Source: Mobula hypostoma (Eukaryota). Taken from it: a DNA stretch of 64,000 nucleotides. Numbering within the stretch: the stretch's first letter is position 1; every line of letters begins with the position of its first letter. Positions 4,963 through 64,000 of the stretch are shown piece after piece. Both the position numbers and the translations under genes were made by a program. Under the pieces are notes generated by a model. The model did no database searches, was not told where the DNA came from, and was given only the letters and a program-made list of their open reading frames with translations. Where the stretch lies: assembly GCF_963921235.1 (NCBI RefSeq), contig NC_086097.1, positions 118,112,001-118,176,000 on the forward strand, given 5' to 3'.

Positions 4963-6380
4963 TGTCATGGTCCGGAACAGGGTCCCTTTAAATTTAGCTT
5001 GTTTATGTTACGATCTGGACCGTTGATTCTCTATTTTCCCATGTTCCTCGACTTTGGTGATTAGAGGCAATTAACACTCGGCTGAAACGATAGTTTATAG
5101 TCTCTGTCTTTCAGCTGTTCGGTGCGGGAGTGTCTGCAAAGTCTGCAAAGTCACGGCATGCCAATGTCATCTGGCCGGAGCAAGCCTTGTCTCCACCCGA
5201 AGCGTGTGCTGGTAATTCACCTGTCCTCACCGGAGCAACCCAGTCCAGTTACCTCGCCGAAACGAGCCTGCAAAGTTTCCTAATCAAGGTGGGTCCATCA
5301 GTTAACCCGCCGGAGAGCATCAAAAGCCACTGTCTACTGTTCCTGGGCCGAGTCGAGAGCTCAGCACTACCCGGAGGCTCCAAGCACCATGTCCTGGCTC
5401 CGGCGGCATCCAAGTACCATGTCCACGTCCTGGCTCTTGCAGCATTCAAGTACCACGTCCAAGTCCTGACCCTGGCAGCGTTCAAGTACCAAGCAAGTCC
5501 TGGCCCTGGCGGCATTCAAGTACCATGTCAAGTCCTGGCCCTGGCGGCATTCAAGTACCATGTCCAGTCCTGGCCCTGGCGGCTTCCCAGTTCCGAGTCT
5601 AGTCCTGGCCCTGGCGGTCTGTGATTCCTGTCCTACCCCCTTGTCTGAATCCCTTCTCTGCCCCTCTCGCCTCTAGCCCTCGTCTGCAGCCCCCACCTGC
5701 ACTTCGGTCTAGTTCCATCACCGGAGCTAAATCGGTACTGCCTGGTGTTCATTCGTGTTGGTCTTGTCTTGTCTCGTCCTCGCCTCCGTGGGGTAAGTCT
5801 GGCCATCTTCCCGTTGCCCTGTGGGGAGTCATGTCTTGTCTTGTCCTGTCCTCGCCTCTGTGGGGTAAGTCAGGCCGTCTTGCCGTTGCCCCGCGGGGAG
5901 TCGTGTCTTGTCTTGTCTTGTCCTCTGTTCTGTGTGTGAGTCCTGGCCCTATGTCCTGTGCCCTAGGAGGGATCCCGGTTCTCTGTTCTGTGTATGTGTC
6001 CAAGGTTCCATGTACCTGCTGTCCCGAGACCGAGGCTCTGTTTTCCATGTTCTTCCTCTCCCTAGCCCATGTCATGTCCATACCTGGTTCTGGGGTCCGA
6101 GCCCGAGGCAAGACCCAGGTACTGCGTCCTTGCCCAGTCTCGGGCTCGGAGTCCATACCCTAGCCTCTTCATGTCTCCGCTAGTTCTGGGATCCGATTCC
6201 GAGTCCAAGCCCAGACCCTTGGTCCCAGCCTAGTCGTAGTCCTGAATCCTTATCCTGTCCGCTATTCCTGCTTGTGTCTTGATCTCCTGGTATCGTACCA
6301 TAAACTAAACCTAAGTAACCTCACAAGATGTGTCTTGCATTTGGGCCCACCCTTGCTCCCAATGCCCTGCCTTTGTGACA
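4963..6380 (+). mobile_element. Solo LTR (Gypsy-type, 1418 bp) with internal minisatellites
   Basis: TGTCA...TGACA termini; perfect 5-bp TSD CTCCT (4958-4962, 6381-6385). Confidence 0.85.
5380..5620 (+). repeat. Minisatellite of ~30-36 bp units (GTCCTGGCCCTGGCGGCATTCAAGTACCATGTC..) inside the solo LTR
   Basis: About 6 imperfect copies seen directly; a second ~62-bp tandem pair at about 5760-5925. Confidence 0.9.
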
Positions 6381-20289: not shown

Positions 20290-20399
20290 CTAAACAAATT
20301 TTCATTGTTGTTCATATGCAACAACATTGTAAGGTTTTATAGGAGTATACAAATTTAGGAATGCTCATCTTTAACAGTATAACCAGAAGCCAGAACCCG

Positions 20400-21830
20400 G
20401 TGGTTTTTAGGTATGGTAATTTCAATCACCACTTCATTCAGCAAGCTGCTGAACTTATGCTTCCTCTACATAGTGTGCTTAAAGGAACCACCACTAATCA
20501 AATGCTTGACTGGTCTGCAGACGTGACAAGCCATTTGGCGATACCAACTGAGCTCCTTCCAGCACGACGTTACTGGTGCACCTGCTCCCCAACTATGACC
20601 ATTACTACTAATGCTTCAGACTATGCTGTGGGTGCTGTGCATGAACAGTTGTTCAGAGGTGTGTGGCAGCCACTCACCTTCTTCAGCCGGCAGCTCCAGC
20701 CCCCCTGAATGCAACTACAGCACATTTGATCATGAGCTTCTCGGTCTCTATCTGACTGTTCGCCATTTTTTGTTTTCTTCTAGAGGGTCGCCATTTCACA
20801 GCGTTCATTGACCACAAACCTTTCATGCATGCAATGGCCAAAATATCAGACCCCTGGTCCGCATGGCAGAAAAGCCATCTGGCCTACATATTCGAGTTCA
20901 TAACTGATATACAACATATCAAGAGCAAAAATAATGCTGCGGCTGATCGGCTTCTTACGGCCACCCGATGAGGCCGTACACATAAGGGTTGACTGTGCTG
21001 ACATGGCAGCCGACTAAGTTACTGATCCAGAGGATGAGGCTTAATGAACAGCAGCCACGGGCTTGCGGTTGTCTGACATTATGTTTGAGGAGGATGGGGT
21101 TTCTCTCCTGTTCGATGTCTCAACTAATCGTCCTTGCCCCATAATGCCCACAAACTGAAGATGGACTGTTTTCAACTCTATACGTGACCTCTCAGATCTA
21201 GGCCTCACAGAAACTGGTTGCACTAAATTTGTTTGGCACGGCATCAGAAAGAACATGCATGATTGGACGACCTCTATGGAGTGCCAGCAGGCAAAAATTA
21301 AATGTTATCTTCAGGTGCCATTGGCAATTTTTGAGGTCTCTCAGCAACTGTTTGACCATGTCAATGTGGACCATGTCACTCTTCCCACCGTTTCATGCTC
21401 CTTCTTACAATGGTGGGCCGTACCGCCAGGTGGCCAGGGGTCATCCCTCTAGCATCGGCGACAGCAGCAGATGTGGCTTAGGCATTCATCAACATCTAGG
21501 CTGCCTGGTTTGGCAGCCCCATCTAATATTTCCTCTGACCGTGGTCCCCAATTCATCTCAGACCTCTGGGCTGAGATGGCCCAGATCCTCAGCGTTAGGC
21601 TACATCACCCCATGGTGTATCACCTACAATCCAATGGCCTATGCTCCTTAAAAGCTGCTCTGAGGGCTTTGCTGATGGATGAGTGTTTGATTGATCATCT
21701 CCCCAAGTCCAGCTGGGGCTCAGCTTCTCCAAAAGAGGATCTACAGTCGCCTGCAGCTGAGTTGTTACAAATGCCAGGTGACTTCATTCTTGACATCATG
21801 ACCACCTGGTTGGCATTTCAACAGCATATA
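20400..21830 (+). mobile_element. Degenerate Ty3/Gypsy pol (RT end, RNase H, integrase)
   Basis: TNASDYAVGAVHEQ..WQPLTFFSRQL, YSTFDHELL, DHKP, ISSDRGPQFISDLW, YHLQSNG. Confidence 0.88.
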
Positions 21831-22034
21831 GGATTGTTGCTCGCTGCCGCTTACGTGCGAGGCGGGGGAGCTGGGGAGGGACTTCGGGGTTCTAGCATTT
21901 AACTGCCATTCATTCTTTGGGGCACTCCTCTATTTTCATGGATGGTTGCGAAGAAAAAACATTTCAGGATGTGTATTGTGTACATTTCTCTGACACTAAA
22001 TTGTACCTTTGAACCTCTGAAACCAGAGCACCAT

Positions 22035-38955: not shown

Positions 38956-40871
38956 TGTCAGGCCTACACAGGCAGGCAGCTCTCAGGCTATGTCCACACT
39001 AGACAGGATAAATCCGTAACCGAAGCTTTTTCTCTTCGTTTTGACCCTCCGTCCACACTAAAATGGTGTTTTCCTCCCCCAAAAAATGGAGCTTTTCAAA
39101 AACGCTCCCCAGAGTGAATAAATTTGAAAACGCCTAATGGCCGATGTACTGTGTACGGGTAACCGGCAATTTTTAAAACAGCTGTCATGACGAGCCGGAA
39201 CAGATGGTGACAGCAGCACGGCATTTCATTGTTTTCTTGAACGCAACTTCCAACACCACAACAACAATGGCGGACAGCTTCATGTGTGTGTTGTCTACTC
39301 TATTGTCTATGTTAATTTCAACCCCCCCTCCCCACACAACCTAACAATTTCAGAACAGAGGGCAACGAGACTGAAGCCAGAAGAGTTAGAAATGTACTCA
39401 CCAGATACTTTGACCCATAACTAACTGAATACTGAATAAATAAGTATACTCACTTCACCCTGTTTTCTGTCCTTGCTTGTATGGAGGTGGTTTACCTATT
39501 TACGCAAGTACTTCTCTAACAACAGATGTGTAACAGCCTAATGTAACATTGTATGGAAATACAAGATAACCCTAATGCAGACATGTTTTATACATTTAAC
39601 AAGGTGCTTTTTTAATGTATTACTTGTGCAAACATTCAATAGATGCAATTGTCACTACTTTCAAAATGTCATTTTTAATTAATAGCTTATGTTTGGCAGA
39701 GAAGTGAAAATGTTAAGGTCAAAAAGGAAAATTGTAAGTTTCACTTTTACTCCGGTAAAAATAAAATCGCTTTTGCCCAGTAACTCGTTTTATTGCACAT
39801 CTTAAATACAGCAAAATAATACAGAAAGAGATAGCAAAAGTAAAGGCAAACAAATGAGGTAACAGCAAATTTCACTTTTCCCCAGTAACAAGGTAACAAG
39901 CATTTAGCTGTAGCTGTTGTCAATTTCATCGGTGAACAGACTATGGCTGTTGGAAATGTTTCCAGGATGACCCCTCTGTAAGAGTGGGGAAGATGTTGGT
40001 GGGGCCACCTGAGGATCTGTATGTCCATATGTGTAGCGATTGTAGTGGCTGTGAGGCTGGTATTGTGGCGATGAAAAGTACTGTGGGGGGGGGGGGGAAC
40101 CATCATATTCCTTATCATTGCAAATCCCTCTGCAACAGAGTTAGTCAGTTTTTCAATGTTTGTCATCAGCCGGGTCATACTGTCCGTGAACTCCCTGTCG
40201 GTTGCCTCCATACATTCCAGTATTTGTTTTTTCAGTTTTAAGTCCTCTTGCGCGAGAGCCAGCAGCTGTCCGTCGTTTGGCAATTTCCTTTTAAGTATCT
40301 CTAGTCTGTAACTGGACAAACGCGCACCAAGACTTTCACGACGAAAATCCATACTGAACATGCCGCAGCCATCACCTGTTGCTTGATCCAAACTGCCAGA
40401 GTCAGGCGTACTCGTCGAAGTGGGTGAGTTCTGTAGATGTGTCCTGCTCATGCCCAGTAGGAGGAGATTCGCCCAAATACCCGTTTTAATGTGGACAGAG
40501 GTATTTAGGTATTTTCAAAAATGCCTAGTGTGGATGCCTGTCATTTTTACGTAAAACTGGCGTTTTCAAAATTATCCGGGCTAGTGTGGATGTAGCCTCA
40601 GTCTCCACACAGCTAATAAGGGCCAGCTGCCACTCCTTTCCAACTCGTTACCTGCAGCCTATTTAAACCCAGCTCACATTCCTTGCTTCCCCGTGGAACA
40701 AGCCAGCTTCAACCAGTGCTCCTAGCCTTCAGTTACCTTGTATTGATTCTTTTTTGTTTTGTGGCCCCTTGCAGCTTGTTATTTTGCAGTTTATTATTAA
40801 AGTGAATGCTCACCGCTGAGTCATCTCTGCTTTTCTGTCTTTGGGCTAAGCCTCCTCTACACTTCCTGACA
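38956..40871 (+). mobile_element. Solo LTR (family of 1777-2079) interrupted by a Harbinger element
   Basis: TGTCAGGCC...CTTCCTGACA; flanks CATCC/AATCC (5-bp TSD, 1 mismatch). Confidence 0.75.
38986..40597 (-). mobile_element. PIF/Harbinger-like deletion derivative (1612 bp) retaining a coiled-coil/Pro-rich ORF remnant
   Basis: TIRs GGCTATGTCCACACTAG / CTAGTGTGGATGTAGCC; 3-bp TSD TCA; ORF 39747-40451 resembles the C-terminal half of Harbinger Myb/SANT-type ORFs; no DDE transposase seen. Confidence 0.82.
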
Positions 40872-45123: not shown

Positions 45124-45728
45124 CACTCTGTGCCCACTTTATTATATACTTCCTGTACCTAATAAAGTGGCCACCAAGTGTATGTTACAGGTCTTTTGTT
45201 GCTGTAGCCCATCCACTTCAAGGTTTGACGTGTTGTGCATTCAGAGATGCTCTTTTGCACAGCACCTTTGTAATGCGTGTTAATGTGAGTTATTGCTGCC
45301 TTCTGTCAACTTGAACCAGTCTGGCCATTCTCCTGTGATCTTTCTCTTTAAGAAGACATTTTTTCCCCACAGAACTGCCACTCACTGGGTGGTTATTATT
45401 TCTTCCACCATCCTCTGTGTAGACTCTAGAGATGGTTGTGTGTGAAAATCCTAGGAGAGCAGCAGTTTCTGAGATACTCAAACCACCCTGTCTGGCACTA
45501 ACGATCACTCCCACATTGAAAGTAATTTAGATCACATTTCTTCACCATGTCTGCAAGCGTTTATGCACTGAGTTGCTGCCACATGATTGGCTCATTAGAT
45601 ATTTGTGTTAATGAATAGTTGTTTAGTTGCTCCTAATAAAGTGGCCAAGGAGTGTAGATTGGCTCATTAGATATTTGTGTTAATGAATAATTGTTTAGTT
45701 GCTCCTAATAAAGTGGCCAAGGAGTGTA
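45124..45728. mobile_element. Non-autonomous Tc1-like element with a 72-bp tandem duplication of its right end
   Basis: Homologous to 17217-17657; remnant GLSISETAALLGFSHTTISRVY (HTH); 45585-45656 repeated at 45657-45728. Confidence 0.8.
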
Positions 45729-52232: not shown

Positions 52233-53337
52233 CTATGGAAACAGCACAACATGCAGAGATGAACGTGGAAGTCCATCTGCCATGAAATTGATTCACTTAG
52301 AGCTCTGCTTTTCCGCACCATATGATTCAACTTCAATAAAAGTTTAATTGCAAAGGAAGATGGCCGTGCTCACTGTGAATTGTACAAAGTTTCTGATTCT
52401 TATTCAGGCCCTCTGAGTTCAAATTTCAAAGTAAATTTATTATCAAAGAATGGATATGTCACCATATACTACACTGAGATCCATTTTCTTGTGGGCATTC
52501 ACAGTAGAACAAAGATATTAAAAAAACACAGTGGAAAAACTATGCACAAAGATTGACAAACAACCGAAGTGCAAAAGAAGACAAACTGTGCAAATACGAA
52601 TATAATAAAACAATCAATCAATCAATCAATCATATTATGAACATAAGTTTTAGAGCCTTGAAAATTAATGCAATGGTTGTGGAATCAGTTCAGTGTTGAG
52701 GTGAGAGAAGTTATCCACAGTGGTTCAGGAGCCTGATGGCTGTAGGGTAATAACTGTTCCTGAACCTGGTGGTTTGGGACCTAAGACCTCCAGCAGACAA
52801 TGGGTGGTGAGAAGGATGTCTGATCGTCCAGTTTGGAGGGGCACTGTATTTCACAGTAGCCTAGAATTCATGTCTACATACTATTTCTGAGATTTTGGCT
52901 CACTTCTTCTTGGCCCATGGATAGTACTGTTCACCCAGGGCTTCATAGCTCAGGCAGGACGAGTCATAGAGTCATACAACACATCCAGTCCATGCCAAGC
53001 TATTATTCTGCCTAGTCCCATCGCTTTCACCTGGACCATAACATTCCCAAACTTCTTTTGAATGTTGAAATCAAATCTGCATCCGCCGCTTCTGCTAGTA
53101 ACTCATTTGAAATGCTTGTTAGAGTGAGTTTTTGGGTAGATGATTAATTTACACTTAAATGACTCTGGCCACCAGTCTTTTATTTGACAAAGTACTGCGG
53201 ATTGAGTTCACAACAATGCATTTCCTAAAAGCTGTGAATATCGGGATACTAGCCAGACTCTGCAAATGGAAGTGTGAAGTTTACAGGTAGTTTCAAAGAC
53301 AGTATTATCTATACTTTATAATATTAATTGTCTTCTA

Positions 53338-53683
53338 TGTTAGCACGTAGAATCCCAAATAAGTATATTGTGGATTTGACTTGCACTCCTAAAGGCTGTG
53401 AGTACCAACCCAGACATGTTGGCGTCAGGAGGAAAGGATGAAGTCAGAAGGTGTGATGTTTTGTACATAGCTTCAAAAGGAAGCATTGTCTATAACTTTG
53501 TAAGTAGCGATTGCCTTTTGTGTTTAGCATATAAATATCGAGACACATTGGGCTACCAGACCTTTCTACCGAAAGTGTCTCCGTCCGTATGATGCCTGCT
53601 GTACCTTGTTGTGTTGAATAAAGGAGCTGCTTTGTATCTACCAGTGACTCTGTCTGTCTGGTGATTTCATCCACGCTACAACA
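53338..53683 (+). mobile_element. 5' LTR of endogenous retrovirus (346 bp)
   Basis: TGTT...AACA ends, TATAAA 53530, AATAAA 53617, PBS directly downstream. Confidence 0.85.
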
Positions 53684-53685
53684 TT

Positions 53686-53703
53686 TGGTGTCAGAAGTGG
53701 GAT
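53686..53703 (+). promoter_or_regulatory. Primer-binding site complementary to the tRNA-Leu 3' end
   Basis: TGGTGTCAGAAGTGGGAT, complement of ...ATCCCACTTCTGACACCA. Confidence 0.88.
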
Positions 53704-54051
53704 ACCATCACGACCCGTCGTATGGCCAGCGTTCCTAGCAGTCTAAGTTGGTGGGTATTTTTCTAAAATAACACTCACATTTGGATCTGTTCGGTAAGTG
53801 GTACACGGGAACACAAGGTATCATGAACACAGAGAGCTGAACTGGTGGTTATAAAAGTAGTGTGTACATGTGCATGTGTGTTTATGTAAGTGAGGAAACT
53901 TTACGTGTTAACTTAGTGAGACTTGGACCACAGTTGCGAAGGTGGTAACCGACGGTACGATTCGAGATGCCAGAGTAGAGGCATGTATACTCGTTTTTGC
54001 ATTTTAGTGTATGCGTTTACAAGTGTGATGCAAAGGAATATAGCAGGCATC

Positions 54052-55135
54052 ATGAGTTCGGGTACTCAAAAGTGGCAGATTGTGGAATATATACTCTGCG
54101 GTTTTAACTATGTGCTGTTTAACTGGTACCTGTCTTTTATATTTTGTGTAGTGTGGGAATTAGTGTGGAGATATCTCAGCAAGAGGTTTTACCCAGATAG
54201 ATCTACCAGAATGGCACCTATTGAGGTCAGGCAATGTCAGGTTAAGAATCCTGATGATCCAAGCCAGCCCTTGACCTTGATTACGACTATTCATAAGCCC
54301 TTCACCTCCGGGGAGAAACAGAGCATCTTATCTGAGTTGCCCTCACATAAAGTCGTCCTGTGGGAATTCAGAATTCTGGCGTAAGCTTGAGGAAATGGTT
54401 GAAATCCACCAGATGTGCCCTAAAGATATACACGCGTTAGTGAAAGCAAAGTGCCCGAGGAATATGTGGGACAGGATGGCCCAGGGGGTGCGAGATGGTA
54501 CATGCGCAACTACCGGGAGCACCAGTAATGAAGAAAGATATCGTTCCTTTAAAGGGGAAGTGAGGCAGCGGCTGGGGGGAGGTGAGAGTAGCTGGGGAAC
54601 GATAATGGCAGTGACCCAGAGGGCTGATGAGACAGCCATGGATTATGCAGAATGTAAATACCGAGCATATGAAGAGTATTCAGGGTTGGATAATCCAGGG
54701 AAGGACGACCCAGTCTTCCTAAAAATGCTGAAGGAAGGCCTGAGCTCAGCCTGCCAGGAAGTTTTAGATTTAGGTATAACGTAGGGTCCAACTACTCTGC
54801 AATGGTTTCATGGGCCAGTGAGATAGACCAAAGAAAAGGTAAGAGGAAATAGTAAAGTGGGTAGACTGGATGCAGCTGCTGTGATGTCCAGGAGAGTTTG
54901 TTTTACATGCTAGCAGCCAGGGCACCCAGCAAAGGACTGCCGGACCAGGTATAAGACAGTGAAGGAGTTGATACGCTACAGCTGTGGCCTATCGTGTTCA
55001 AAAGGGAGGGGGAAAACCCAGGCGAAGGAGACGGCAGACACCCAGTCACTCACCCCATCAGCACCCAGTCTGTCCAATCTGACTGCTGATCAGATCATAG
55101 AACTAGTACAGAGGGCTTCTAAGTCAGGAAATTAG
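54052..55135 (+). pseudogene. gag: ERV gag (frameshifted): hydrophobic N-terminus, capsid-like region, CCHC knuckle, PSAP motif
   Basis: HKPFTSGEKQSILSELP; VTQRADETAMDYA; CFTC*QPGHPAKDC; second knuckle partly deleted; PSAP at 55055-55066; TAG at 55133-55135. Confidence 0.8.
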
Positions 55136-56585
55136 CTGGCGGCGGCCCCCACTGCCAGCGCTGGTGACCCGAGGATGTATACAACGGCACTGTTAGGGGG
55201 ATGGCAATGCAATATGTTAGTGGACACAGGGGCATCGGTATCAATAACTGACCTATCCTTACCAACAACCAGACAGGCTATTTATATTATGGGAGTAAAG
55301 GAAAAACGGTAAAAGCAGAAAGAAGCAAGTCGCAAGTACTGGAAATTGGGGGAGTGCAGCTTCCAGTGTATTTCTGGGGTATGTCCAAATAGTGAGGGCA
55401 CGATCCTTGGAATAGACATCCTAAGGTAAGCAGGAGCTGTTATATAATCAGGAAAAGGAGAAGTAATATGGACAAGTCAGGGGCAGCGAACACGCACAAC
55501 CAACAGATTACACAGCATGGCTGGCATAGGCAGAGCTGCCCCGATCATTAGAGACTGGAGCCAGGCTGGTGTCTATGGGTTACCTTGTCTGCAGTTCCCA
55601 GCTGTGTGGGCTAGGCACAAGCAAGATTGTGGGCAGGTAAAGAGAGACCCAGTTAAAATAGATGGGGACCTGCATAAACCCTGTAAGCAGTATCCTATAA
55701 AACCTGATGCACTGACAGCTGTTCAGGGTATAGCGAAGGAACTAAAACACCAGGGGATACTCAGAGAGACTGCAGCCACTACTAACTGACCTATATGGCC
55801 AGTAAAGAAACCCGATGTGTCATATCGGTTAACAATAGACTATACCGCCCTTAATAAGATCACGCCCAGATTGCATCCCATTGTGGCGAGCCCTGCGACA
55901 ATCCTGAATGGCCTGTTTCCAGAACATAAATTTTGGATATCGCCAATGGGTTTTGGGGGCTCCCCTTAGCACCTGAATCCCAAACCCGATTTGTCTTCAC
56001 CCTGGGTGGGCGACAGTATACGTGGACCAGACTCCCCCAGGGATTCCACAATAGCCCAGCTATTTTTCATAAGGTCATGGCGCAGACTTTGGAAAAGCTC
56101 AATTTAATGCCCTATGGGACGACCATCTTACAATATGTAGGTGATCCATTCATTGCTTCGGAAGATAAAGCAGGCCACTTGGGAGCAATGGCCAGTGTTT
56201 TAGAGGTACTGCAGAATGAAGGGTTTAAAATCAGTCCACACAAGGCTCAGCTGGGCAAACAAACCATACAGTACCTGGGCTACACCATTTCCCAAGGGAG
56301 GAAGGACGTATCAGATGACAGACGCTCGACAATCAGCTCCATGACCCACCCAGTCAACATAAGGGGATGTGAGGAAGTTGATGGGTTTGTTTAACTACTG
56401 CCCAGATTTTATACCGGGGTTCTCAGCACTAGTGGCCCCGATACAGGTCTTGATTAAAGGAGGGAAGCCCCTCTGGAAGAAGTAAAGTGGGGGTCAGAAG
56501 AGGAAAAGGCCTTTACAGAAATCAAGAAAGCTCTGGTTTCTGTAGCCGCGCTAGGGCTACCAGATGCAGCTCGCCCTTTTCACCC
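55136..56585 (+). pseudogene. pol: ERV pro-pol, part 1 (protease and RT), snakehead-retrovirus-like
   Basis: LVDTGAS; WPVKKPD..RLTIDY; LDIANGFWGLPL..YTWTRLPQGFHNSPAIFH; LQYVGD (decayed YVDD); QYLG. Confidence 0.9.
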
Positions 56586-57936
56586 TGTTACATACCTCAA
56601 GGAGATCTGTGATTTTTTTTGTGTGAGAATGATGTAATGGTCTTTTGGAGGTCACCTGATGTAATTTTCCTGCCAATGTGAGGTCACGTGATGACATGTG
56701 CACCACGGGTATATAAGGGAAGACCTCAGCTGACGCAGTTAAAAAAAGGGTAAAGATATTGTGATCGCTGATTGTTTATCTGGATGTTAAATGTACAATG
56801 AAAATTTGTTTTTTATGGAGTGATATTTTAACATTTGTAACACTCCTACTGTACATTAGTTTATAAAGTGCTGAAAGATAAGACTGTATATAATGTGTAT
56901 TGTTACGTACCCCGTAACTGGGTTGCCAAACCAGCAGAAATGGATCACTCAGTTGGAGTCTGGAGTACTAGAACTAAGAAAGTTTTATTAAAGAAACAAG
57001 CAACACATTAATCGAAAGGATAATAAATGCAACAGTTCAGCGATGATAAACGCACATGTGCACAGAATTAAGATAACAGCATCAATCAAGCTCTATCGTT
57101 GTCTAGGGGTAAATGACCAATTTCAAAATGACTCAAAGTTCAGTCCAGTTTGTAGTTCAGTTCGCAGTAATCGTTGCCATGGCGATGGACAACGTGGGGG
57201 AAGAGAGAGATAGAACAGGAACAACTGATCATTCAGAACACGGCTTCACTCACAGACCAGCGAGATGGCTCACAAACAGCTTTTGGGCGGGTCCTTGGTG
57301 ATGTCACCTGAGGTCACCGACTGTGACCCCTCCTCCAGATGCGGTCGATCCTCTGCAGTGAACCCGGCACCCAGGCAAGGGCGGACACACACCGGGTTCC
57401 CGCTGATCGTACCTTTCCACCCTTGTCGTTGTCTGGTACTTCTCACCCACTCGTGAGAGGCGCACCGTTTCCAGGGTCTCGTTACCTCGGGTGGCGTGTG
57501 TCCCTGTCTTAGCGAACCTGTCCCTTTTTATCCCCCTGCTGGGGTATCGCCTGTCCATCACTTCAAACAGTTCAGGGTTCAAAGGTGGGGGGAGCCGCTC
57601 CAGACAGCTCTCTCTCCCACATCCCTTCATTACACATCTCCAGACGCTGCTCCATTGTTCCTTATCTCTCCTTCCCCTGAGGGCAGGTGGCAGACCAACT
57701 GCTGATGCCACTGATGCTAGCCCAGGCCAGCAAACATCTTAATTTTATGTGTATTCTCGTAACACTTCCCCCCTTTAAGGATTTTTACCGGGAGGTAAAA
57801 ATTACAAACATGACTACATTATCTGATACATACACAATATACATCTTTAACAGTTATTTAGCTAATACAGAGAATTTGAAGCTGTCAACACCTTGACAGA
57901 CAGTCATCACATTTTCTGTTCCTTTTACACGTGTTA

Positions 57937-58878
57937 TTAATAATCCCTTAGACCAGGCTCCAACTCAGCAAACTTCATAGTGGCCAAAAACACTGATGAA
58001 TTGCGACCAATGTAACCTCTCATTTGGTTTTGTCCCGGACCACAACAACAAGGGTCGTCCCATTCCGACTCAATTTTCTCTCGCAAGGGCTTAGTAGGAG
58101 GGGGACGGGTATTGACCGCAGAGTTATTGCAAAACTTCCTGCAGTACCCCACCATTTCCAAGAGCCTTCTGAGGGCCCTCTTGTCTGTCGGGGTTGGGAG
58201 GTCAGCGATAGCCTGCACTGTAGCTTGCATCACTGCCAGCTGCCCCTGTGTCACCACAATTCCCAGGTAAGTGACTCTCGTGTGGCCGAATTCATTTTTT
58301 TCAAGGTTCACTATCAAACTGGCTTCAGACAGCCGTGTTAAATTGCCAATACACACCTCTGTGTTCATCAGCCCTTTAGTCACTGAATTACTCGAAAAAT
58401 ATGGGTGTTGTTTACTTGGCTGCCCTATTGTAACCACAATCACCCAATGTCCCAGTTCTTTGCATTTCCTCGGGACAATCAAACACATAGGTGCGAGTCG
58501 TTTAATTACTCCTTCTAAAGATTCGCTTTGTTCGGGGATTAAGGGAGAGACCTTATCAGTAGATCTGGCCAAAACAATAGCCTTCTCCCATCTGACCGAT
58601 CCCATCCTAATCTTTTCAAAATGGTTTTTTCCTCTTATCAAGGGGCCCCTAGCTTCATTGATTTCCACGCTAACACCGACTAGGTTTGTTAGCATATCAA
58701 AAGCCGGTGACCGTCTCAGTTCGCGTCGGTCATGATCAATAACATTTTTCCCCCTGGGCAGCCGGTAACTCTCTTTCATGATTCCACCAACTGTTTCCTC
58801 CAGCACCGCAAAATGTCCACCGGGGGGTACCTCGTGGGCCATGTTAAAAACCTCATCCCCATAACTCTTTTGCACCAC
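57937..58878 (-). pseudogene. Collapsed pol remnant of element B (integrase N-terminal fragment, then RT fragments)
   Basis: AHEVPPGGHF; VCIGNL in place of YxDD; LSEASLIVNLEKNEF..VTYLG..LRRLLEMVGYCRKF. Confidence 0.8.
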
Positions 58879-59142
58879 CCCCCACTCCTCATCTGCGGAA
58901 TACTGTCCTTGATTTCCCTTTCTTCCTTAGCACTTCCTCATCCGCACAATAGCCTACTAGTTCCCTTGTCAAGGCTGTGTCAGAGAGAGCTGTCTCTGCA
59001 AAACCCATCAGCCCCTCGCCTCGCTCCTGCGTCTGCACAAATTCTTTCCTGGCTACTGCTACGTCCGTCCCAGCTCCCTCACTACCTCTTATCTCACTAC
59101 ACCCTGTCTCATACAAGGTTGGCAGAAATGTTTCAGCCAAAT

Positions 59143-60837
59143 TCACCATCGCGGGCGGGCCTCCATGCTGGCAGGCTGACCCGTCAATCTCACGACTGGG
59201 AACACGATTCCTCCGGCGATGTCATTACCGAGCAAGACTTCTACGTCTTTCATCGGTAATTCGGGCCTCACCCCGATCGTGACTAGTCCAGAGACCAGGT
59301 TGCTCTGTAAGTGTATCTGGTGCAAAGGGACTGACTCTGTCCCTTCCCCAACACCTTTGACCTCTACCTCCCCAGTCTGGGTCTCTGAGCTAAACTCTAA
59401 TACACTCTTCAGTATTAGTGACTGACACGCTCCCGTGTCTCTCCAGATCCGCACTGGAACTGGTTTTAACCTCTCCTTCACTGACACCAGTCCGGCCGAG
59501 ATAAACCTCTCGCGCCCTTCCTGAACTTTATCAGACCTCCTCCCCCTTGGGGGTGGGTTTGCCGGCTCAATACAGCCAGTCGGAACCCCCGTCTTTCCTT
59601 TCCTTGGGCCAAAGCACCTGGACGCAAAGTGTCCGACTTTCCCACAATTATAACAGACGACCCCAGGAGACTTCCTACCAGGCTGCTCCCGGTCTACCTT
59701 ATCCTTTTCACTAGTCCCCGGCTTACTTTCTGACTTTTCCGGCGGACTCTCCCCTCCGTCCTGACTACCCTTCTGGTAGCCTTTACTCGGGGCAAACTTC
59801 ATTTTATGCGTCAACGCATACTCATCCGCTAACTTAGCAGTTGCGGCTAACGTGGCTGCCTCTTTCTCATCGAGGTAGGGTCTCATACCCTCAGGGACAC
59901 AACCTTTAAACTGCTCAATCAGAATCAGCTGCAGCAGTCTGTCACAATCCCCCTCTACCCCCTTCGAGGCGCACCAACGCTCACAATATGTTTGCATCTC
60001 GCGAGCAAACTCCAAATACGTGCTGTCCCACCGCTTCCTCGCATTCCGGAACCTCTGCCGGTATGCCTCCGGGACCAACTCATAAATCCTGAGGATGGCC
60101 TCTTTCACCACCTCATACCTCTGGGCATCTTCCGCGGACAAAGCTGAGTAAGCTTTTTGGGCCTTCCCTTTCAGCACACTCTGAAGTAAAACAACCCACT
60201 TATCCCTTGGCCATTCCTGACTTATAGCCACCTTTTCAAAGTGGAGAAAGTACCGATCCACGTCGGTATCGTCAAAAGGGGGAACCAGCCTTACCTCCTG
60301 GGTCGCCCGGAACCCTCCACCTTGGTTCGGCACGAGCCCCTGCTCGGCCCTTATCTTTAACTTCTCCAGCTCAAATTCCCTTTCCCTCTGTTTCTCCTCT
60401 CTCTCCAACTGTCTGTCCCTCTCTCTCTCTTCTCTCTCCAACTGTCTTTCTCTCTCTTGCCTTTCTACCTCTTTCTCTTTCTCCCACCTTTCTAACTCTC
60501 TCTCCTGCCTTTCTAACTGTCTCTCCTGCCTTTCTAACTGCTTCTCTTCGTGTTCTAACTGCCGTACCCGGAACTCGTGCTCGAGTCTCAGTTTTTCAAG
60601 CTGTACCTGTACCGCGTATCCAGCAGGTTTTTCAATAGACACCTCCCCCAGCTCACCTTGGGGAAACACACCTTTAGATACATAGTGCTCTACAATAGCT
60701 CTGTGTATCTCCTCTCTCCTCATTGTCGACTTCACCTTAGCAAGATTCACCCGTTTGGCCACAGCTATCAATTCCGATTTCCTGGCATCCTCTAATGCCT
60801 CCAAGGTCGGCGCCTTTATAAATTCCTCAACCTCCAT
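59143..60837 (-). CDS. gag: Intact Gag-protease ORF of element B (564 aa)
   Basis: E/R-rich coiled coil; capsid FEKVA..WPRDKW..LKGKAQ..YELVPEAYRQRFR; knuckle CYNCGKVGHFASRC; protease RDTGACQSL..LLGND. Confidence 0.9.
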   Translation of the reverse strand: MEVEEFIKAPTLEALEDARKSELIAVAKRVNLAKVKSTMRREEIHRAIVEHYVSKGVFPQGELGEVSIEKPAGYAVQVQLEKLRLEHEFRVRQLEHEEKQLERQERQLERQERELERWEKEKEVERQERERQLEREERERDRQLEREEKQREREFELEKLKIRAEQGLVPNQGGGFRATQEVRLVPPFDDTDVDRYFLHFEKVAISQEWPRDKWVVLLQSVLKGKAQKAYSALSAEDAQRYEVVKEAILRIYELVPEAYRQRFRNARKRWDSTYLEFAREMQTYCERWCASKGVEGDCDRLLQLILIEQFKGCVPEGMRPYLDEKEAATLAATAKLADEYALTHKMKFAPSKGYQKGSQDGGESPPEKSESKPGTSEKDKVDREQPGRKSPGVVCYNCGKVGHFASRCFGPRKGKTGVPTGCIEPANPPPRGRRSDKVQEGRERFISAGLVSVKERLKPVPVRIWRDTGACQSLILKSVLEFSSETQTGEVEVKGVGEGTESVPLHQIHLQSNLVSGLVTIGVRPELPMKDVEVLLGNDIAGGIVFPVVRLTGQPASMEARPRW

Positions 60838-60912
60838 TTCTGCTGTTTGTCTTTTCTTTCTTTCGGGAATTTTAACCCAATCAATTTACTCCGTCCCAAA
60901 TTTAGCGTTCAA

Positions 60913-60932
60913 AATCCCGGACGAGAACCCCA
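60913..60932 (-). promoter_or_regulatory. tRNA-Pro-like primer-binding site of element B
   Basis: TGGGGTTCTCGTCCGGGATT versus canonical TGGGGGCTCGTCCGGGATT. Confidence 0.8.
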
Positions 60933-62779
60933 CTTATGTTACGTACCCCGTAACTGGGTTGCCAAACCAGCAGAAATGGATCACTCAGTTGGAGTCTGGA
61001 GTACTAGAACTAAGAAAGTTTTATTAAAGAAACAAGCAACACATTAATCGAAAGGATAATAAATGCAACAGTTCAGCGATGATAAACGCACATGTGCACA
61101 GAATTAAGATAACAGCATCAATCAAGCTCTATCGTTGTCTAGGGGTAAATGACCAATTTCAAAATGACTCAAAGTTCAGTCCAGTTAGTAGTTCAGTTCG
61201 CAGTAATCGTTGCCATGGCGATGGACAACGTGGGGGAAGAGAGAGATAGAACAGGAACAACTGATCATTCAGAACACTGCTTCACTCACAGACCAGCGGG
61301 ATGGCTCACCAACAGCATTTGGGCGGGTCCTTGGTGATGTCACCTGAGGTCACCAACTGTGACCCCTCCTCCAGATGCGGTCGATCCTCTGCAGTGAACC
61401 CGGCACCCAGGCAAGGGCGGACACACACCGGGTTCCCGCTGATCGTACCTTTCCACCCTTGTCGTTGTCTGGTACTTCTCACCCACTCGTGAGAGGCGCA
61501 CCGCTTCCAGGGTCTCGTTACCTCGGGTGGCGTGTGTCCCTGTCTTAGCAAACCTGTCCCTTTTTATCCCCCTGCTGGGGTATCGCCTGTCCATCACTTC
61601 AAACAGTTCAGGGTTCAAAGGGGGGGAGCCGCTCCAGACAGCTCTCTCTCTCCCGTCCCTTCATTACACATCTCCAGACGCTGCTCCATTGTTCCTTATC
61701 TCTCCTTCCCCTGAGGGCAGGTGGCAGACCACTTGCTGATATTACTGATGCTAACCCAGGCCAGCAAACATCTTAATTTTATGTGTATTCTCGTAACAGT
61801 ATGTTGTAAATTTTATACCTTTGTTTTTTTTTGTAATCTGTTAATTGTTAAAATTTTGTTTTTTAAGAGACCAAAATTTTTTGGAGGGAGGTGTTACATA
61901 CCTCAAGGAGATCTGTGATTTTTTTTGTGTGAGAATGATGTAATGGTCTTTTGGAGGTCACTTGATGTAATTTTCCTGCCGATGCGAGGTCACGTGATGA
62001 CATGTTCACCACGGGTGTATAAGGGAAGACCTCAGATGACGCAGTTTAGTTTTTAGTTTTAAGATTTCCAGCTAGAACATACTGTGTCTCCGTTTCTGTT
62101 GTGTATTTGTTTTTATGACGCAGTTTCACTTTTAAAGCGGTTGTAATGTTCTGTTGCAAGGTACAATAGTGCTGGATTGGCAATTTTTGCTAGATGTGTT
62201 GATGTACCTTATTCCAGCAGTAGTACGGGAGAGTGAAGACTTTATCAAAGCACAGGACCTCAAGGATTGAAGGGGAGTTGGTATTGTTTGGCAGTTTAAC
62301 GAAGGATCGACCTTATTGAGTCTTTGTTGAAGGAGTAGCGACCTGCATCAAATATAACTCTTGCCAAAAGAGCAAGATAGCTCATGCAAAGGTTTGCTCT
62401 CTAGAATTTAAGGTCAGTTGTTTTTAACTGTTTATTTCCTGCATCGTGAATCCTTTGTACAGAACCAGCAGGAACGTCACGTCTATGAAGAAATCCTTCT
62501 CCAGAGAAGTCTCTCCCAATTGAACGTATAAATCTGTTGGACTTTCGAATTTACCATTTTAAGAACTATATCTGACTTTAACACTTTAAGAACTGTTTCC
62601 TCATTTAACGCTTTAAGAACCAGTGCCAAGTGATGATTTGTTGAACGGTTGCATTAGCGGTTAACTTCCGGTTACGGTTTTCGTTTGTTTATTTTATCGT
62701 TCATCTGTCTGTAGTAAATGTTTGGTTGTTTTTATATAACCTGTCTCAATTGATATTCATTGTTGCCGGTTACGTAACA

Positions 62780-64000
62780 ACCTATACTGTAGTAACGAAG
62801 GAGGGTACTACAATGCGGTAGTAATGCAGGACCATGGGGACACTAGAAGGCTGGTGGCCTATTACTCTATGAAACAGGACCCCGTTGCAGCAGGACTCCC
62901 CCGCTGTGTTGCAGCTTTGGACTGCACCGTGTGGGCTGTGCGAGTAAGCAAACCAGTTGTGATGATGGGGCAACTGATCCTACACACACCCCGTACCATT
63001 GTAGAGCTCCTGAACACGAGGAGGCTGAGGGTAGTCACCGATAGCCGAAGGGAAGCTTGGGAGGCAGTTCTCATCCCAAACGACAAATCAGTAACTATAG
63101 TTAGAGACACGGAAGATCCTGCGAGCGCCATCCTAACAGAGGGAGAAGCACGTGAGTGCCAAATAGAAATTCTCAAGGAGGAAGATATCGGTGTGAAGGG
63201 AACACCTCTGAAAGGAATAGCAGATGAAATCTTTATAAATGGGTCTAGGAGGTACATAGATGGGAAACCACGAACTGGGTGGGCCGTGGTAAAGGAAACA
63301 CGTGAAGAGTTAGCTTCAGGAGCACTGCCGGGGGGTTGCTCAGCTCAGGTAGCAGAACTGGCCGCTCTGATAGAAGCTCTACGCTGCAGTGAGGGCAGAC
63401 GGGTAAATATATATACCGACAGCCAGTATGCATTCGGGGTGGTGCATGATTACCTAATGGCTTGGGCACGACGAGGATTCACAACTTCAACAGGTGCTAA
63501 TATTCAGCATGGGCACCTAATACAACAGCAGTGAGCCTGCCAGAAGAGGTGGTAGTGATTAAGGTGAGAAGGGTCAGAGCATGAAACAGAAGGGAAGTGA
63601 GTGGGCAGATGTTGCTGCGAAGAAGGCAGCAGAGGAACAAGAGGCAATTGAAATTGCAAGTGTGCAAGAGGAAACGACAGAAGCCAGCTTAGTAAAATTA
63701 TATGAAGAGGTAGAGGCAGAAGAGAAGGAAAAATGGAGGAGGAAAGAAGCAAAGGAGGGACAAGATGGGTGCTGGACACACGAGGAGGAGAGTCGCGGTG
63801 GCCCCACCCTGTATTAGACAGATACTACTAAAGTTATACCATGGGGTGATGCATCAGGAAAGGCAGAGCTTGATCACAACCCTCTGGCAGGACTGGTTGT
63901 CCTGGGATGGGCGGGGATGTTGAGAAATTCTGCCGCCGTTGTATCATTTGTGCCCAGCATAACCCTGGTAAGGGCAGAAAGCTACAGTTGGCAAATCAGC
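62780..64000 (+). pseudogene. pol: ERV pol, part 2 (tether, RNase H, start of integrase; continues beyond the window)
   Basis: LVAYYS..DPVAAGLPRCV; IFINGS; SAQVAELAAL; VNIYTDSQYAFGVVH; integrase HHCC YHGVMH..CRRCIIC. Confidence 0.9.

Follow-up and report, generated by a model that had tools for sequence, protein, structure and literature searches.

The 3' end of a 64,000-nt stretch of the Mobula hypostoma genome (contig NC_086097.1, positions 118,112,001 to 118,176,000 of the forward strand; here called the window) carries a retroelement and raises the question of what kind of element it is, to which lineage it belongs, and whether that lineage is new. It is a genuine decayed endogenous retrovirus (ERV) on the plus strand. 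We judge it likely that it represents a dead, simple orthoretrovirus-type provirus of the aquatic assemblage termed snakehead retrovirus (SnRV)-like or Clade Huo, within the sub-lineage of Rh_ty_ERV4 and Ch_my_ERV12 and off the branch of SnRV itself. The ERV adds a new member to an aquatic lineage that had been sampled before but only thinly described, and is not a new type of virus.

Identity and state of the element

Along the plus strand, the element comprises a long terminal repeat (LTR), a primer binding site (PBS), a capsid region, one zinc knuckle, a TAG codon, protease, reverse transcriptase (RT), a tether, a second RNase H, and the first part of an integrase (Table 1). A tblastn search with intact relatives returned pol in the order protease, RT, thumb, tether, RNase H, and integrase N terminus. 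RT matched Pfam RVT_1 with an E value of 4.9e-24, and the two RT motifs named in the first-pass annotation were located, LDIANGFW at 55,933 to 55,956 and YTWTRLPQGFHNSPAIFH at 56,017 to 56,070. The protease motif was found at 55,223 to 55,231, with a weak Pfam match (E value of 0.057). Downstream, a single open reading frame (ORF) at 62,740 to 63,534 matched RT_RNaseH weakly over the tether (E value of 6.6e-5) and then RNase_H (E value of 2.1e-14); the succession of a tether and another RNase H is the retroviral arrangement (PMC7947760). Residue 453 of the shark protein P0272 was found by tblastn on both sides of a 6.2-kb gap in pol, and the catalytic core of the integrase, env, and the 3' LTR lie past the window end.

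Several features expected of a retrovirus are present, namely, the tether and second RNase H, an RT that stands apart from Gypsy, an LTR, a PBS, and a retroviral capsid. That pol is retroviral rather than Gypsy-like, as first proposed, was upheld by the dual RNase H, the capsid, and all trees, and RT was 58 to 60% identical to the shark-type rows P0272, P0275, and P0002 versus 27 to 31% to Gypsy-type rows. A position of RT within Ty3/Gypsy was tried as the contrary outcome, and RT split from Gypsy with a support of 100/99 to 100/100 in three RT trees.

Decay was evident throughout: gag has 3 premature stops over 260 codons, pol has 4 over its first 264 codons, the frame shifts at several places, and the catalytic motif of RT is degenerate. 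This copy is therefore dead and makes no working protein.

LTR and primer binding site

The LTR had initially been given as 346 bp, starting at 53,338. The sequence TGTTAG occurs twice, at 53,117 and 53,338. A contig from a different copy, 1,852 nt long, aligned with positions 53,116 to 53,361 and then diverged from the window sequence, another contig with 31 differences continued through 53,338, and the depth summed over contigs was similar in magnitude at 53,128, 53,198, and 53,516. From these contigs and depths, the LTR most likely starts at 53,117, and 53,338 is internal. The LTR is thus probably 567 bp, a length that rests on contigs of other copies. No second LTR of the ERV was found inside the window.

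The proposed tRNA-Leu PBS was confirmed, as it is identical in 18/18 nt to the start of a mouse tRNA-Leu(CAA) probe (PMC7997516). Primers vary among the relatives, with other PBSs carried by SnRV (locus L015) and by lineage I of the elephant shark ERVs, CmiERV (PMC4422223 supplement), and for many ERVs a grouping by PBS gives inconsistent results (Jern et al., PMC1224870). The Leu primer carries little weight and is not diagnostic. The earlier statement that SnRV, in contrast to this element, uses tRNA-Arg held insofar as the two PBSs differ; the SnRV primer is presumably tRNA-Arg, for which no paper was found, and that of CmiERV lineage I we take to be tRNA-Ser. ERV-L uses a Leu primer. Looking for the Leu PBS string gave no match in the first 300 of the 318 pages of the lokiretrovirus supplement or in the S2 Data of PMC6001957, where long DNA runs are cut, and both blanks say little. 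A literature search on the primers of zebrafish ERV (ZFERV) and the swim bladder sarcoma virus of salmon (SSSV) found no paper.

Gag and the gag-pol junction

The capsid region was 37 to 44% identical to P0008 of Heterodontus francisci, with 44% for the piece at 54,353 to 54,781, and was read by ESM Atlas as Gag_p30-like (0.91; 186/256 features). AlphaFold gave the capsid piece a mean predicted local distance difference test score of 46, so the model was left unused. SnRV Gag matched the gag piece of the window at 31% over 54 amino acids (pairwise E value of 0.001) and P0008 at 29% over 148 amino acids (E value of 1e-10). In the search for Gag homologues, P0008 was the sole match among 3,324 candidates, a result of little weight.

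Gag had been described as compact. Counted from the capsid start, it comprises ∼307 codons, in agreement with that description and compared with 618 amino acids in SnRV; the frame is, however, open for a further 97 codons upstream, an openness that was significant against Markov resamples of the leader (P = 0.0012). By tblastn, this leader had no match to the N terminus of P0008 or of SnRV Gag. Its interpretation as a membrane anchor was rejected, as its hydrophobicity lies within chance for the base makeup (P = 0.32) and is equaled in the other two frames. A 430-nt contig from another copy aligned in its entirety across 54,105 to 54,537, and a 33-nt skip within the upstream gag frame was seen in three of four runs. 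In run X9, one contig departs from the window sequence at 54,160, so other Gag N termini are possible, and copies with a different N terminus may exist.

An in-frame gag-stop-pol arrangement together with a zinc knuckle is common to epsilon and gamma viruses (PMC1224870), and the SnRV-type junction and knuckle are therefore unspecific. In the ancestral element, transcription would have started from the LTR with its TATA and AATAAA signals, and host tRNA-Leu(CAA), whose site is observed, would have primed the minus strand. Gag-Pol would have been made by read-through of the TAG codon, as the observed frame and the example of SnRV, gamma, and epsilon viruses suggest, and would then have supplied the RT with its tether and second RNase H as well as the integrase.

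Nearest relatives

Searches yielded 270 proteins, from which rows were hand-picked for five trees. Exogenous viruses were added from IMG/VR loci and labeled by RT motif against the alignment in the PMC7947760 supplement. The trees are without lokiretrovirus or lentivirus rows, represent ERV-L by motif-similar rows only, and include the window element as single natural frames.

Beyond the shark-type rows already named, RT-core identity was 46% to P0008 and to the eel-cluster protein P0160. SnRV was the best named virus (41.5%; 124 bits), followed by walleye epidermal hyperplasia virus 1 (WEHV-1, row P0030; 39%), the ERV-L-like row (35%), and the gamma (32 to 37%) and foamy (29 to 34%) rows. In the RT tree of 90 rows by 154 columns, SnRV was weakly sister to a 21-row group containing the window element (81/73). 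In the tree of 64 rows by 281 columns, the element formed a shark-type clade with P0272, P0002, and P0008 (99/92), and SnRV fell into a basal polytomy. The shark-type clade reached 100/99 under a mixture model with 48 rows and 430 columns, where proteins of the Pimephales and Clupea clusters joined it next (100/98). Independently of RT, the tether and RNase H tree (40 by 252) placed the element with P0272, P0002, and P0275 (100/97). In the integrase tree (48 by 247), which holds the relatives only, these did not group with SnRV. The nearest kin are thus shark ERV proteins and then teleost proteins, which is firm; the backbone is not firm.

Locus scans for relatives found none among viral contigs, and 14 metagenome loci were only 22 to 32% identical and were left unused. 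The P0157 cluster (Pimephales promelas) has 23 members and the P0163 cluster (with Clupea harengus members) has 31, including many near-intact pol gene models. Together the two teleost clusters are sister to the shark-type clade, which suggests recent activity and host jumps.

The shark proteins P0272/P0001, P0002/P0275 (Mustelus asterias, a member of which is in the P0002 cluster), and P0008 (H. francisci) form one starred clade with the window element, and their pol frames are much better preserved than that of the window copy. P0008, a gene model, differs from it in ∼145 precapsid residues and in having two zinc knuckles instead of one.

The elephant shark has SnRV-related ERVs (PMC4422223), others are reported in fish, amphibians, reptiles, and birds (PMC4977317, PMC12193657), and Clade Huo was defined as SnRV-related by Xu et al. 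in 2018 (PMC6001957). In the S2 Data of that paper, passages of rh_ty_ERV4, ch_my_ERV12, and an_an_ERV1 match the window element or P0160 by eye. In its S2 Fig, the labels of all three close the Huo block, with Rh_ty_ERV4 and Ch_my_ERV12 following HERVL and Snakehead_retrovirus and preceding the salamander foamy labels. The lineage had thus been sampled in 2018, and the initial suggestion of an undescribed lineage is not supported as far as sampling goes. Literature searches on fish or shark ERVs and on SnRV turned up no account of its LTR, primer, or Gag; subscription papers, Repbase, or the cut parts of supplements may hold one. Where the protease begins, Rh_ty_ERV4, from the whale shark, agrees with the window element by eye in 22 of 27 residues, and it resembles that element in the RT motifs and in an in-frame stop junction, which is TGA where the window has TAG. 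Ch_my_ERV12, from the green turtle, resembles it in capsid and RT motifs. Both differ from it in host and sequence, the comparison covering the protease start, the RT and capsid motifs, and the gag-pol junction.

Among the better-known relatives, SnRV (L015; 10,688 nt) shares with the window element the in-frame TAG junction, the single knuckle, and the capsid likeness, and differs in its longer Gag, its PBS, an insert between RNase H and integrase, a divergent integrase, and accessory genes. Two H-x-T/S motifs occur in that insert, which we presume to recall a 2H phosphoesterase. CmiERV lineage I is likewise an SnRV-related ERV of a cartilaginous fish with a TGTTAG LTR start, but it has another PBS, an LTR of ∼820 bp, and a long Gag with repeats (PMC4422223), and the similar row P0018 grouped away from the window element in the RT trees of 154 and 281 columns. 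ERV-L belongs to the same broad Clade Huo but lacks a zinc knuckle (PMC1224870) and is represented by the RT row of only 35% identity.

Deep placement and alternative readings

The initial description of the element as SnRV-like thus holds in the broad sense, by the best named virus, by Gag and the TAG junction, and by the look-alikes in the Huo block, but finds no support in the sense of a sister to SnRV, which the longer trees do not recover and the approximately unbiased (AU) test does not reject. Several observations weigh against placement in the assemblage. In the 48-by-430 tree, the clade adjoins class I-type rows on an unstarred branch (92/90), with SnRV outside, and the 64-by-281 tree links it to class I-type rows in a wider group (90/93). 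The integrase of the relatives is 36% identical to that of SnRV compared with 40 to 53% to other rows. When a broad Huo clade was enforced, the AU test rejected it mildly (P = 0.034), only with the ERV-L-like row included; without it P rose to 0.090, and to 0.137 when the eel row was also dropped. Moreover, the S2 Fig comparison reflects the order of labels in the PDF text and carries no topology, and the sequences of Xu et al. were compared by eye. The AU tests are weak in power: they rejected neither a sister relationship to SnRV (P = 0.236) nor a position with the foamy rows (P = 0.107), nor even a basal one beside the Gypsy rows (P = 0.106).

The alternative that survives best, a real possibility though clearly the less probable reading, is that the clade is the stem of the class I (epsilon and gamma) retroviruses, with "SnRV-like" denoting a grade and the element bridging SnRV and class I. 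It draws on the 92/90 branch to eel, Coilia, epsilon, and gamma rows, which had a Shimodaira-Hasegawa-like approximate likelihood ratio of 99 in the quick tree, on the class I-type fish rows that gave the top tether and RNase H identities beyond the clade, and on Jern et al., who place SnRV between epsilon and spuma-like viruses (PMC1224870). The branch is unstarred in the careful tree, however; class I there also takes in the alpha, beta, and delta rows, a sign of a long-branch artifact; and the AU test rejects none of four alternatives (P = 0.236, 0.137, 0.107, and 0.106). This stem position is compatible with the preferred reading as to nearest kin, and only the deep placement differs. Membership in Epsilonretrovirus or Clade Mu was rejected, the element lying outside the 100/99 class I-type group of the 48-by-430 tree.

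A different alternative concerns the mode of life. At a threshold of at least 85%, every ERV bin is covered by contigs in runs that carry three organism labels. Of 24 listed runs from 11 studies, 20 contain part of 52,600 to 56,585 and none contains half, the query having included flanking repeats. Cover in run X19, which may be RNA, is not counted as expression. LTR bins have ∼10 times the summed depth of inner bins, a depth that is not a copy number. The family might be an intracellular retrotransposon in which the Gag matrix and coiled coil were swapped for a short hydrophobic leader and env was lost, as in mouse intracisternal A particle (IAP) and MusD elements, for which there is precedent (PMC2791754). 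The many copies, the Gag N terminus unlike that of P0008 and SnRV, the open 97-codon frame, and the 430-nt contig with the skip in three of four runs are in line with this. Against it, the hydrophobicity of the leader is what base makeup predicts, the X9 contig leaves room for other N termini, P0008 is a gene model, and the env region lies past the window end. We regard the intracellular reading as unlikely. To the same degree doubtful is the composite picture of an env-less intracellular offshoot in cartilaginous fish with a swapped Gag N terminus, a tRNA-Leu(CAA) primer, and many copies, parallel to IAP and MusD, in a lineage perhaps bridging SnRV and class I.

Still less probable is a strict SnRV clade, with the element directly sister to SnRV plus CmiERV lineage I. 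The 154-column tree, the AU result for SnRV, and the single knuckle and TAG junction of SnRV speak for it, but the longer alignments lose the link, the stretch linking RNase H to integrase is ∼150 residues longer in SnRV (243 versus 95 in P0272), the PBSs of SnRV and CmiERV lineage I differ from that of the window element, and the SnRV integrase differs from that of the relatives. A lokiretrovirus, foamy-like virus, or Gypsy element is very improbable: in the PDB the RT piece matched a foamy-type enzyme best and DIANGFW occurs in loki RTs too, but most of the loki RTs in the PMC7947760 supplement (part 74) have, by eye, RCPF or RxPF where the window element has RLPQG, foamy viruses splice pol and are devoid of a zinc knuckle (PMC1224870) where the window has CCHC and an in-frame junction, RT identities to foamy and Gypsy-type rows are low, and a second RNase H is present.

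Nested insertions and the remainder of the window

The ERV is interrupted by an LTR element (A), itself interrupted by a Gypsy-type retrotransposon (B). The insertion proposed at 56586 to 62783 was borne out as an inserted element, with its end corrected to 62,779. The nesting has three levels, element A retaining 160 nt of its 5' LTR plus its 3' end. In element B, the Gag-protease frame is open for 564 codons and pol is deleted; we take its SCAN Gag to be Gmr1-like. The LTRs of A differ by a Kimura two-parameter (K2P) distance of 0.046 over just 157 nt. The estimated ages are 4.5 to 45 million years for B and 10 to 105 million years for A, from a mammalian rate to a tenfold lower shark rate, as assumed by Han in 2015 (PMC4422223). 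The ERV is older than both. Contigs join 56,581 to 62,780 across A and 56,896 to 61,799 across B, each in 4/4 runs, and uninterrupted copies therefore exist. The history of the ERV would thus run from amplification to many copies in the host group, as seen in contigs, through decay to the insertion of A and then of B.

Table 1. Features of the ERV and of the elements nested in it
Feature	Position	Strand	Remarks
5' LTR, probably 567 bp, TGTT...AACA	53117..53683	+	TGTTAG start; contigs of other copies
TATA-like box	53530..53535	+	putative function
AATAAA polyadenylation signal	53617..53622	+	putative function
PBS, tRNA-Leu(CAA)	53686..53703	+	2 nt after LTR; 18/18 nt to probe
Open frame, 97 codons, probable gag N-terminal part	53920..54210	+	ATGs at 53,983, 54,028, 54,052; hydrophobic stretch
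gag capsid and nucleocapsid	54211..55132	+	frameshift near 54,350; premature stops 54,782, 54,824, 54,911
CCHC knuckle (one)	near 54,899-54,940	+	zf-CCHC, E 3.7e-4 (X set at stops)
TAG between gag and pol, one shared frame	55133..55135	+	arrangement as in SnRV
Protease and N-terminal RT	55136..55929	+	stops 55,310, 55,427, 55,445, 55,787; 49% to P0277 residues 3-254
RT palm and thumb	55930..56585	+	frameshifts near 55,930 and 56,370-56,470; degenerate catalytic motif near 56,131-56,142
Tether (degenerate first RNase H), then second RNase H	62780..63534	+	Pfam; 53-54% to P0002, P0275, P0272; 29% to SnRV
Integrase N-terminal region, frameshifted	63566..64000	+	zinc-binding domain, E 2e-5; ends at window edge
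Element A, internally deleted LTR element	56586..62779	+	4-bp target duplication ACCC/ACCT, one mismatch
Element A, 5' LTR stub	56,586-56,747	+	
Element A, purine tract (to 61,891), then 3' LTR	61,892-62,779	+	
Element B, Gypsy-type retrotransposon inside A	56901..61798	-	perfect 4-bp target duplication GTAT
Element B, Gag ORF, SCAN and CCHC	60,837-59,146	-	
Element B, pol remnant	58,926-57,937	-	
Element B, LTRs	60,937-61,798 and 56,901-57,764	-	K2P 0.020

Elsewhere in the window, frames at 194 to 607 and 20,343 to 21,902 resemble further Gypsy pol fragments, and many LINE-like fragments lie between 2,775 and 51,771, both by eye. A 255-codon open frame at 39,747 to 40,514 on the minus strand is perhaps a DNA transposon gene; it had no identical entry in the sequence collection, where none of 8 window ORFs looked up by exact match was present. 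Tandem units of ∼35 nt were seen at 5,390 to 5,976 and of ∼72 nt at 45,585 to 45,728. No host exon was recognized in the window by eye, and Rfam and ARAGORN gave no match in it.

Implications

The three nested elements provide a relative clock at a single locus. More taxa near the orthoretrovirus base could decide between clade and grade for the "SnRV-like" elements. If the family should prove env-less with a remodeled Gag N terminus, it would represent an independent intracellularization outside mammals. The group of ERVs from sharks, teleosts, and turtles to which the window element belongs lies close to that base and is thinly described, and the element adds to it the anatomy of the LTR, the primer, and the gag-pol junction.

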